Origin: Escherichia phage LMessi
Reading direction: 5' to 3' (one strand)
Length of the DNA stretch: 37,205 bases
Sequence record: PP925823.1
Shown one piece after another: positions 14,854 to 14,979 of the stretch. Under the pieces are notes generated by a model, which was given only the letters and a program-made list of their open reading frames with translations, was not told the origin of the DNA and ran no database searches. Both the position numbers and the translations under genes were made by a program. Within the stretch, counting starts at the first letter, position 1, and each line of letters opens with the position of its first letter.

Positions 14854-14979
14854 GAACTACCTCACGATAATAACGATCGTTAAAAGCGATCAATCGTGTA
14901 AAATTGATCGCTCATATCAATCTGACTATTTTTTAAACTCAAATAAAATGGAAGTTCCCGCATAAACAGGAATGTTGAA

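Follow-up and report, generated by a model that had tools for sequence, protein, structure and literature searches.

In Escherichia phage LMessi (sequence record PP925823.1), a tail-fibre gene and a gene for a small lipoprotein diverge from a 126-bp intergenic region, located at positions 14,854 to 14,979 of the 37,205-nucleotide stretch of DNA that was analysed, the whole of which is referred to here as the window. The intergenic region contains three GATC sites, the targets of Dam methylation, set within an inverted repeat and two half-sites of the type recognized by the regulator OxyR, and is read below as a probable Dam/OxyR operator. The window is that of a lambdoid phage and shows, across this region, 97% identity with Escherichia phage HK639, which propagates on E. 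coli K-12. The features of the locus are as follows.

13468 to 14853, minus strand: tail-fibre gene, with ribosome-binding site GAGG at 14860-14863 and ATG at 14853
14875 to 14878, unstranded: GATC-1 (Dam target), marking the outer end of dyad A; unchanged in 64 of the 65 relatives that have the operator
14876 to 14890, unstranded: OxyR-type half-site dyad A, ATCGTTAAAAGCGAT; 8/10 match to ATAGnTnnnAnCTAT; matrix rank 1 of 37191 window positions
14885 to 14912, unstranded: inverted repeat without mismatch, AGCGATCAAT-N8-ATTGATCGCT, whose midpoint coincides with the two-fold axis of the 46-bp operator
14888 to 14891, unstranded: GATC-2, marking the inner end of dyad A and lying in the left repeat arm; 13 bp from GATC-1; invariant in 65 of 65
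14906 to 14909, unstranded: GATC-3, marking the inner end of dyad C' and lying in the right repeat arm; 18 bp from GATC-2; invariant in 65 of 65
14907 to 14921, unstranded: OxyR-type half-site dyad C', ATCGCTCATATCAAT; 8/10 match to ATAGnTnnnAnCTAT; matrix rank 2 of 37191; 31 bp from dyad A
14922 to 14949, plus strand: predicted sigma-70 promoter of the lipoprotein gene (CTGACT, 16 nt, TAAAAT)
14980 to 15342, plus strand: lipoprotein cargo gene, 120 aa, lipobox LVAGC

GATC cluster, OxyR-type half-sites and predicted promoter

The sequence-only reading of this region had described three GATC sites embedded in palindromes, 20-60 bp from the tail-fibre start and about 70 bp from the divergent lipoprotein gene, and this description is exact. 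The sites occupy the positions given above; a palindrome, AACGATCGTT, lies at 14872-14881, and AGCGATCAAT (14885-14894) is the exact reverse complement of ATTGATCGCT (14903-14912), with an 8-bp spacer between them. The tail-fibre ATG lies ~21-22 nt beyond GATC-1 (22 nt by direct count) and 56 nt from GATC-3, and the lipoprotein ATG ~68-69 nt from the end of the inverted repeat (68 nt past it). A further repeat, GATCG-N7-CGATC, is nested at 14875-14891.

The same reading took the clustering of GATC sites inside a regulator-sized palindrome as the hallmark of a Dam-sensitive switch. The window contains 146 GATC sites compared with 145 expected—that is, no general enrichment—and a group of three GATC sites within 35 bp has an expectation of ~0.9 per window and was seen in 56% of simulated windows, so that the cluster alone is not significant, even though the one at 14875-14909 is the sole cluster of this kind in the window. 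Clustering was therefore rejected as evidence on its own, and what supports the switch is instead the operator architecture, its conservation, and its recurrence. The inverted-repeat pattern (18 specified bases) is expected 0.02 times per window, and the complete composite described below is far less frequent than that. The palindrome, for its part, is real, but rather than a stand-alone dimer site it appears to be the two-fold-symmetric centre of a 46-bp operator of the tetramer type.

The half-sites were ranked with a matrix built from seven known dyads of agn43, mom, and gtr. Seven dyads in the window reach at least 8/10, and dyads A and C' form the only phased pair among them; among 200 simulated windows, a phased pair of OxyR-type dyads arose in 0.5%, in no case alongside three GATC sites. 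When the Toledano consensus is used in its full length of 37 nt, the region and mom both reach 13/20 and agn43 reaches 14/20.

On the lipoprotein side, CTGACT-16-TAAAAT is the only promoter-like site within 14600-15500, as predicted by consensus. Its predicted -35 element, CTGACT, starts 1 nt after dyad C' ends, and the centre of this dyad (14914) would lie at approximately -42 relative to the transcription start of the lipoprotein gene, which is predicted near 14956. Among the 65 operator-bearing relatives, the -35 element is invariant and the -10 element nearly so. For the tail-fibre gene, no sigma-70 promoter was found above the scan threshold; an extended -10 candidate, TGATATGAG, located inside dyad C', was rejected, being without the final T and unconserved.

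Two other sites in the window that resemble OxyR dyads may be noted. A perfect 10/10 dyad, ATAGCTGTAAGCTAT, which also forms a hairpin with a 6-bp stem and has no GATC, is present at 8419-8433, between the CI-like repressor gene (7632-8366) and a helix-turn-helix gene (8569-9000). Downstream of the 244-aa CI-like repressor, the adjacent open reading frames (ORFs) 8569-9000 and 9061-9453 look like a split or second repressor: the matches of one are limited to the helix-turn-helix part of repressor families, and those of the other to the CI-like C-terminal part (phrog_6201). The second site, the 15-mer ATCGCGATAATCGAT (7270-7284), ranks third with the OxyR-dyad matrix and overlaps GATCGCGATAATCGATATC (7269-7287), the best Fur-box match of the window (14/19); the latter stretch has one GATC and lies within ORFs 7120-7455 and 7129-7326, just past a helicase-loader-like ORF (6105-7256).

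Conservation in relatives and recurrence in other phages

The 92 related loci that were collected yielded 72 distinct upstream sequences, 65 of them operator-bearing. All three GATC sites, together with their 13- and 18-bp spacings, are kept in 64 of the 72, at offsets within 1-4 nt of those in the window, and the sites are also kept where lipoprotein identity is only 64-67%. The element is also present in E. coli strains UMNK88 and 210205630. Of the 12 GATC positions 1 is variable, compared with 60 of 114 other intergenic positions (Fisher p = 0.0045 for 65 sequences, with p inflated by kinship), and variation within the dyads sits on the "n" positions of the consensus (Mann-Whitney p = 6e-5, likewise inflated by relatedness). 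The repeat core CGATCAAT/ATTGATCG is invariant among the relatives, and the intergenic region is better conserved than the lipoprotein coding sequence at 73 of 73 loci.

The remaining seven relatives have an unrelated intergenic region without GATC sites, and five of the seven have a canonical terminator at this position on the minus strand. In these five (L058, L063, L067, L085, and L089), the GATC region is replaced by a sequence in which the terminator (CCTCGC-TCCG-GCGGGG, then TTTTTT, on the minus strand) precedes a different tail-fibre N-terminus, and in which a TTGAGA-18-TAAAAT promoter serves the lipoprotein gene.

Scanning viral contigs for CGATCAAT-N8-ATTGATCG yielded at least 120 stretches, with at least 121 sites having adequate flanks. 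Among the matches listed, a third GATC is found exactly 13 bp beyond one arm in 105 of 121 (87%), compared with ~1% by chance, and beyond both arms in none. These composite sites fall, again among the matches listed, into 14 flank clusters, namely the HK639 type (47 of 105) and 13 with unrelated flanks. At the sequence level, the same composite recurs in at least 12 unrelated phage contexts and in both orientations relative to the flanking genes, and this recurrence is the strongest evidence for reading the element as a putative OxyR/Dam operator.

Two of these contexts deserve description. In P2-like phages, the composite lies between a tail-fibre assembly gene and the tail sheath gene FI, at no fewer than 41 sites, for example in Enterobacter phage ENT4 (PV844615.1, 21802-22202); the contigs with this arrangement include L195, L196, and at least 39 similar ones, and an unannotated hydrophobic ORF of 40 aa (or 60 aa) diverges at +64 (or +71) nt. 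In other phages, the third GATC is positioned 4-21 nt upstream of the start codons of D12-class Dam-family genes and of an N6_N4 methylase (PF02086, PF01555; contigs L185, L114, L110, L212, and L199), a close spacing of third GATC and ATG like that of the tail-fibre gene in the window. A methylation-sensitive operator in front of a methyltransferase gene would imply a feedback loop.

The other side of the composite is equally regular. An ORF preceded by a Shine-Dalgarno sequence starts +55 to +80 nt from the repeat, on the side equivalent to dyad C', at 96 of 105 sites among the matches listed, compared with 4% at random positions, and the lipoprotein ATG in the window (+69) falls inside this range. 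The products are unrelated small proteins, mostly hydrophobic, and in most families a membrane protein or lipoprotein. Examples are as follows.

+64, P2-like phages: 40-aa MTILLW... peptide
+66/67, other families: 36-39-aa MERKTVW... and MNRRT... peptides
+62, another family: 103-aa membrane protein

Some other families (L109/L145/L173/L151, L195, and L221) have a TA-rich, -10-like hexamer 15-22 nt past the corresponding dyad, and several sister cassettes have no recognizable -35 element. The distance from operator to ATG, constant across families whose genes are unrelated, is as expected of an operator-promoter cassette and supports the presence of a promoter at this point.

Interpretation of the element and its alternatives

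The GATC cluster is probably a Dam/OxyR epigenetic operator-promoter cassette of the mom/agn43 type, 46 bp in length (14876-14921). From architecture, conservation, recurrence, and gene spacing, we infer that OxyR would bind at this locus, that binding would be sensitive to methylation, and that the outcome would be bistable. Each of the two dyads would take one OxyR dimer, the 31-bp spacing fitting the extended form reported for reduced OxyR. OxyR, a host regulator of the LysR type, would occupy the operator when the three GATC sites are unmethylated and thereby bar Dam, whereas methylated sites would bar OxyR, with each state thus copying itself after replication and being heritable. No methyltransferase family was detected in the ten early-region and lysis ORFs scanned, and no DPPY-type ORF in the window, which is ~12 kb shorter than HK639; the switch would therefore depend on host Dam.

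The most likely target is the lipoprotein gene, with ON and OFF lineages of lysogens as the expected result. Its promoter is likely to be the primary one because the operator abuts the predicted -35 element, the dyad would be near -42, the spacing is fixed, and heritable states matter in a lysogen. Whether bound OxyR would activate or repress this promoter is a closer call, and activation is slightly preferred, since the half-site at -43 in opvAB corresponds to the ON configuration and since a recognizable -35 element is missing from several sister cassettes. The tail fibre is presumably read from a late transcript running antisense through the lipoprotein gene, and OxyR bound to the operator, 21-66 nt ahead of the tail-fibre ATG, could, speculatively, impede this transcript as a mom-like gate.

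An alternative is that selection has acted on RNA, the element being a minus-strand hairpin with the role of a weak terminator or insulator that only antiterminated polymerase would pass, or with a role in RNA processing or stability, and the GATC sites being incidental.

14884 to 14913, minus strand: RNA hairpin with an 11-12-bp stem followed by UUUUAA, ~30 nt upstream of the tail-fibre ATG

The predicted folding energy of -15.2 kcal/mol (z-score -6.3) and the canonical terminator at the hairpin position in GATC-less relatives of the L063 type speak for such a function. So do the outer pairs 14884/14913, 14885/14912, and 14886/14911, which vary among G-C, G-U, and A-U on the minus strand and would give A-C mismatches on the plus strand, and a 4-bp insertion in the repeat spacer, which is the hairpin loop, that is tolerated in relative L031 and would be expected to upset a protein site while leaving a hairpin intact; the last two observations also count against an OxyR-bound DNA site. 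The hairpin, however, leaves unexplained both GATC-1 and dyad A, which are outside the stem, and the exact 13/18 spacing in common with mom. Its seven inner pairs are near-invariant in sequence and without covariation, five of the seven strictly so and the other two (14893/14904 and 14894/14903) with one departing sequence each; part of the loop, TGTAAA, is conserved as well, and the pair 14887/14910 is broken on the minus strand in three sequences. Intrinsic terminators have a G+C-rich stem followed by at least 5-6 U, whereas here 4 of 10 pairs are G-C and the tail is UUUUAA, with a U-tract of just 4 nt, and a terminator scan of this region gave only a different weak hairpin (14892-14874). 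Nor would a hairpin account for the repeat in at least 12 unrelated contexts and both orientations, with the third GATC at 13 bp in 87% among the matches listed. It is improbable that the hairpin is the selected feature; it is better regarded as a by-product of the symmetry of the operator, perhaps recruited secondarily as a weak insulator.

A comparably low probability is assigned to an operator that is modulated by Dam without involvement of OxyR, be it for another symmetric regulator (another LysR-type protein, Fur, or a phage factor) or as a GATC cluster for SeqA. The whole site is two-fold symmetric and would suit any dimer-of-dimers. SeqA is suited by GATC sites about three helical turns apart, and GATC-1 and GATC-3 are separated by 31 bp, or approximately three turns. 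GATAATAACGATCGTTAAA, at 14866, matches the Fur box at 13/19, but at least this score is reached by 14 sites in the window, so that the match is not distinctive. A phage repressor operator or other repeated site was rejected because the window, immunity region included, has no second copy of the repeat even at three mismatches. Moreover, OxyR is the regulator at the experimentally characterized members of this layout, namely mom, agn43, and the gtr dyads (PMC2909390). That the GATC sites and palindrome are functionless, having arisen by chance or spread recently along with the flanking genes, is highly improbable. Clusters as dense as this one are common in simulated windows, as noted above, and close relatives have most of the intergenic region in common; against this stand the selective invariance of the GATC positions, the composite in unrelated flanks at a fixed gene distance, and the better conservation of the intergenic region than of the lipoprotein coding sequence at every locus compared.

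In addition to the outer-pair variation and the L031 insertion, several points weigh against the OxyR/Dam operator that is nevertheless preferred here. The operators of agn43 and mom, which have the same layout, are repressive, whereas the position near -42 suggests activation. A single 8/10 dyad is commonplace, as the seven in the window attest; the lipoprotein promoter is a consensus prediction only, and no promoter was found for the tail fibre. The 65 relatives are related to one another, so that the conservation p-values overstate their independence, and the pattern used to search other phages fixed the CAAT/ATTG flanks, whose cross-family conservation is therefore by design. Finally, the operator is a prediction from sequence, and searches of the literature on HK639, and on OxyR/Dam in connection with prophages, lipoproteins, or tail fibres, found nothing about this locus.

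If the Dam/OxyR reading is correct, HK639-like phages hold a further switch of this kind, over a prophage lipoprotein beside receptor-binding genes, in addition to the few that have been characterized (agn43, gtr, opvAB, and the mom operator); a 2026 review gives agn43, gtr, and pap as examples of Dam-dependent switches. The same cassette is also present at dozens of further phage loci, phage Dam genes among them, and epigenetic bet-hedging of prophage surface functions would then be far commoner than documented. Such loci could then be sought with the signature CGATCAAT-N8-ATTGATCG-N7-CGATC. A broader proposal, and a doubtful one, is that the element is a portable bidirectional epigenetic cassette of lambdoid, P2-like, and other temperate enterobacterial phages, with a small envelope protein on one side and a gated tail fibre, tail sheath operon, or Dam-family methyltransferase on the other. 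Were this so, lysogens would come in two heritable types, OxyR-bound and unmethylated or methylated, with different surface properties; induced lysogens could differ in tail-fibre supply, that is, in the host range of their virions; and a gated Dam homologue would make the switch reinforce its own state.

With respect to the flanking genes, the tail genes are on the minus strand, and the lipoprotein gene is a reverse-oriented insert between the tail-fibre gene and a DUF8377-like gene of 213 aa. The lipoprotein matches phrog_25729, a PHROG family without assigned function; Pfam family and PDB sequence searches gave no match, and all homologues are annotated as "hypothetical" in a family restricted to prophages of Enterobacteriaceae. 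The AlphaFold model has a predicted local distance difference test (pLDDT) score of 71, and a fold search with it gave no significant PDB match and matches only to unnamed viral proteins. In phage HK022, the 5' end of the tail-fibre gene is common with the window, but cor occupies the position of the lipoprotein gene; this position alone raises the idea of a superinfection-exclusion protein similar to Cor or Llp. The 3' end of the convergent 213-aa gene overlaps the lipoprotein gene by 36 bp (15307-15342), and a terminator-like hairpin on the plus strand (15367-15379) lies within the 213-aa gene.

In Escherichia phage LLS (L003, 84-3154), IR-L and IR-R sites and a Fin invertase are annotated with the tail-fibre gene downstream of the same operator, implying that inversion of DNA can exchange the C-terminus of the tail fibre and so add a second layer of variation to it at this locus. 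The integrase, DinI, and tail-fibre genes are side by side in the window (11483-14853), as in a vegetative or circular map with the attP region intact, which indicates that the window is phage-ordered and not an integrated prophage with host flanks. A tellurite-resistance-like cargo gene is also present (2338-2763), between a Q-like antiterminator and the holin.

Comparison with characterized Dam/OxyR operators

The agn43, Mu mom, and P22 gtr regions were compared directly with the window, agn43 and mom by the same dyad scan, with the following results for the operators having three GATC sites in this arrangement.

Window (minus strand): GATC spacings 18 and 13 bp; dyads ATTGATATGAGCGAT and ATCGCTTTTAACGAT, 31 bp apart; 8/10 each to ATAGnTnnnAnCTAT
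E. coli agn43: GATC spacings 19 and 13 bp (L095, positions 218/237/250); dyads ATAGAATAAAACGAT and ATCGTTTATATCGAT, 32 bp apart; 8/10 each
Mu mom: GATC spacings 18 and 13 bp (L096, positions 660/678/691); dyads ATAGAAAACGACGAT and ATCGGTAATACAGAT, 31 bp apart; 7/10 each

P22 gtr has the dyads ATTGATCGGTAACAACGATCAAT and ATTGATCGCTTGTATCGATCAA, almost the same sequences as in the window, with half-sites 32 bp apart. The 13-bp spacing of GATC-1 and GATC-2 is also found in the gtr dyads and in the II-III pairs of mom and agn43, and the 18-bp spacing of GATC-2 and GATC-3 in the I-II pair of mom. The Dam/OxyR class is characterized by at least two dyads (at least 7/10) spaced 22 or ~32 bp apart, with GATC sites inside the half-sites, so that methylation and binding are mutually exclusive, and with an operator that overlaps or adjoins the promoter under control; the window has two dyads at 8/10 each, 31 bp apart, and its GATC sites sit at the two ends of dyad A and the inner end of dyad C', at spacings equal to those of mom. 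A half-site spacing of 32 bp is reported as the canonical form used by reduced OxyR, and GATC methylation abolishes OxyR binding at gtr (PMC2909390, PMC4856963). By contrast, switches of the pap type, controlled by Lrp and Dam, have two GATC sites ~100 bp apart and Lrp sites, whereas the three sites in the window are all within 35 bp and the nearest others are at 13606 and 15273. Switches of the sci1 type, controlled by Fur and Dam, have a Fur box that overlaps a GATC and stands out in its match to the 19-bp consensus, for which the window offers the 13/19 match at 14866 described above.

Both agn43 and Mu mom are under the control of OxyR and Dam (PMC2909390). The agn43 (flu) operator resembles that of the window in its three GATC sites, its two 8/10 dyads (32 vs. 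31 bp apart), and its CGATCAAT and ATCGATCGTT contexts, and its single OxyR site produces a two-state switch (PMC2909390), as would likewise be expected in the window. It differs in that the -10 element is inside the first dyad, the site covers the transcript start, and OxyR represses, whereas in the window the site is upstream of, and abuts, the predicted lipoprotein -35 element and, toward the tail fibre, forms part of a late-gene leader. In addition, the agn43 gene encodes a chromosomal autotransporter, whereas the gene in the window is phage cargo.

Mu mom has a geometry identical to that of the window, is also phage-borne, adjoins a tail-fibre region, and likewise has a gene on the side of the 13-bp GATC pair. 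Unlike in the window, however, a promoter lies between the mom operator and this gene, with ~75 nt to the com ATG, whereas the ~21 nt from the third GATC to the tail-fibre ATG leave no space for one; nor is there, in Mu, a gene diverging on the opposite side. It is not established that mom is phase-variable (PMC2909390).

P22 gtrABC and Salmonella opvAB are, like the lipoprotein gene, prophage or horizontally acquired cargo, and theirs modifies the envelope through a glycosyltransferase or a chain-length modulator, whereas the cargo in the window is a lipoprotein without assigned function. Their dyads have the form ATTGATCG-N7-CGATCAAT, with two GATC sites 13 bp apart and half-sites spaced by 32 bp (PMC2909390). 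In opvAB, a half-site at -43 lies directly upstream of the -35 element and is occupied in the ON state (PMC4856963), comparable to dyad C' near -42 in the window, whereas a half-site at approximately -38 in gtr is repressive (PMC2909390). The gtr operator has three half-sites, four GATC sites, and two alternative OxyR positions, and opvAB has four half-sites; with only two half-sites and three GATC sites, the alternative-site switching of gtr would not be possible in the window. Overall, the locus appears to belong to a known kind of Dam/OxyR operator, to which the present analysis adds its putative membership in a widespread phage cassette.
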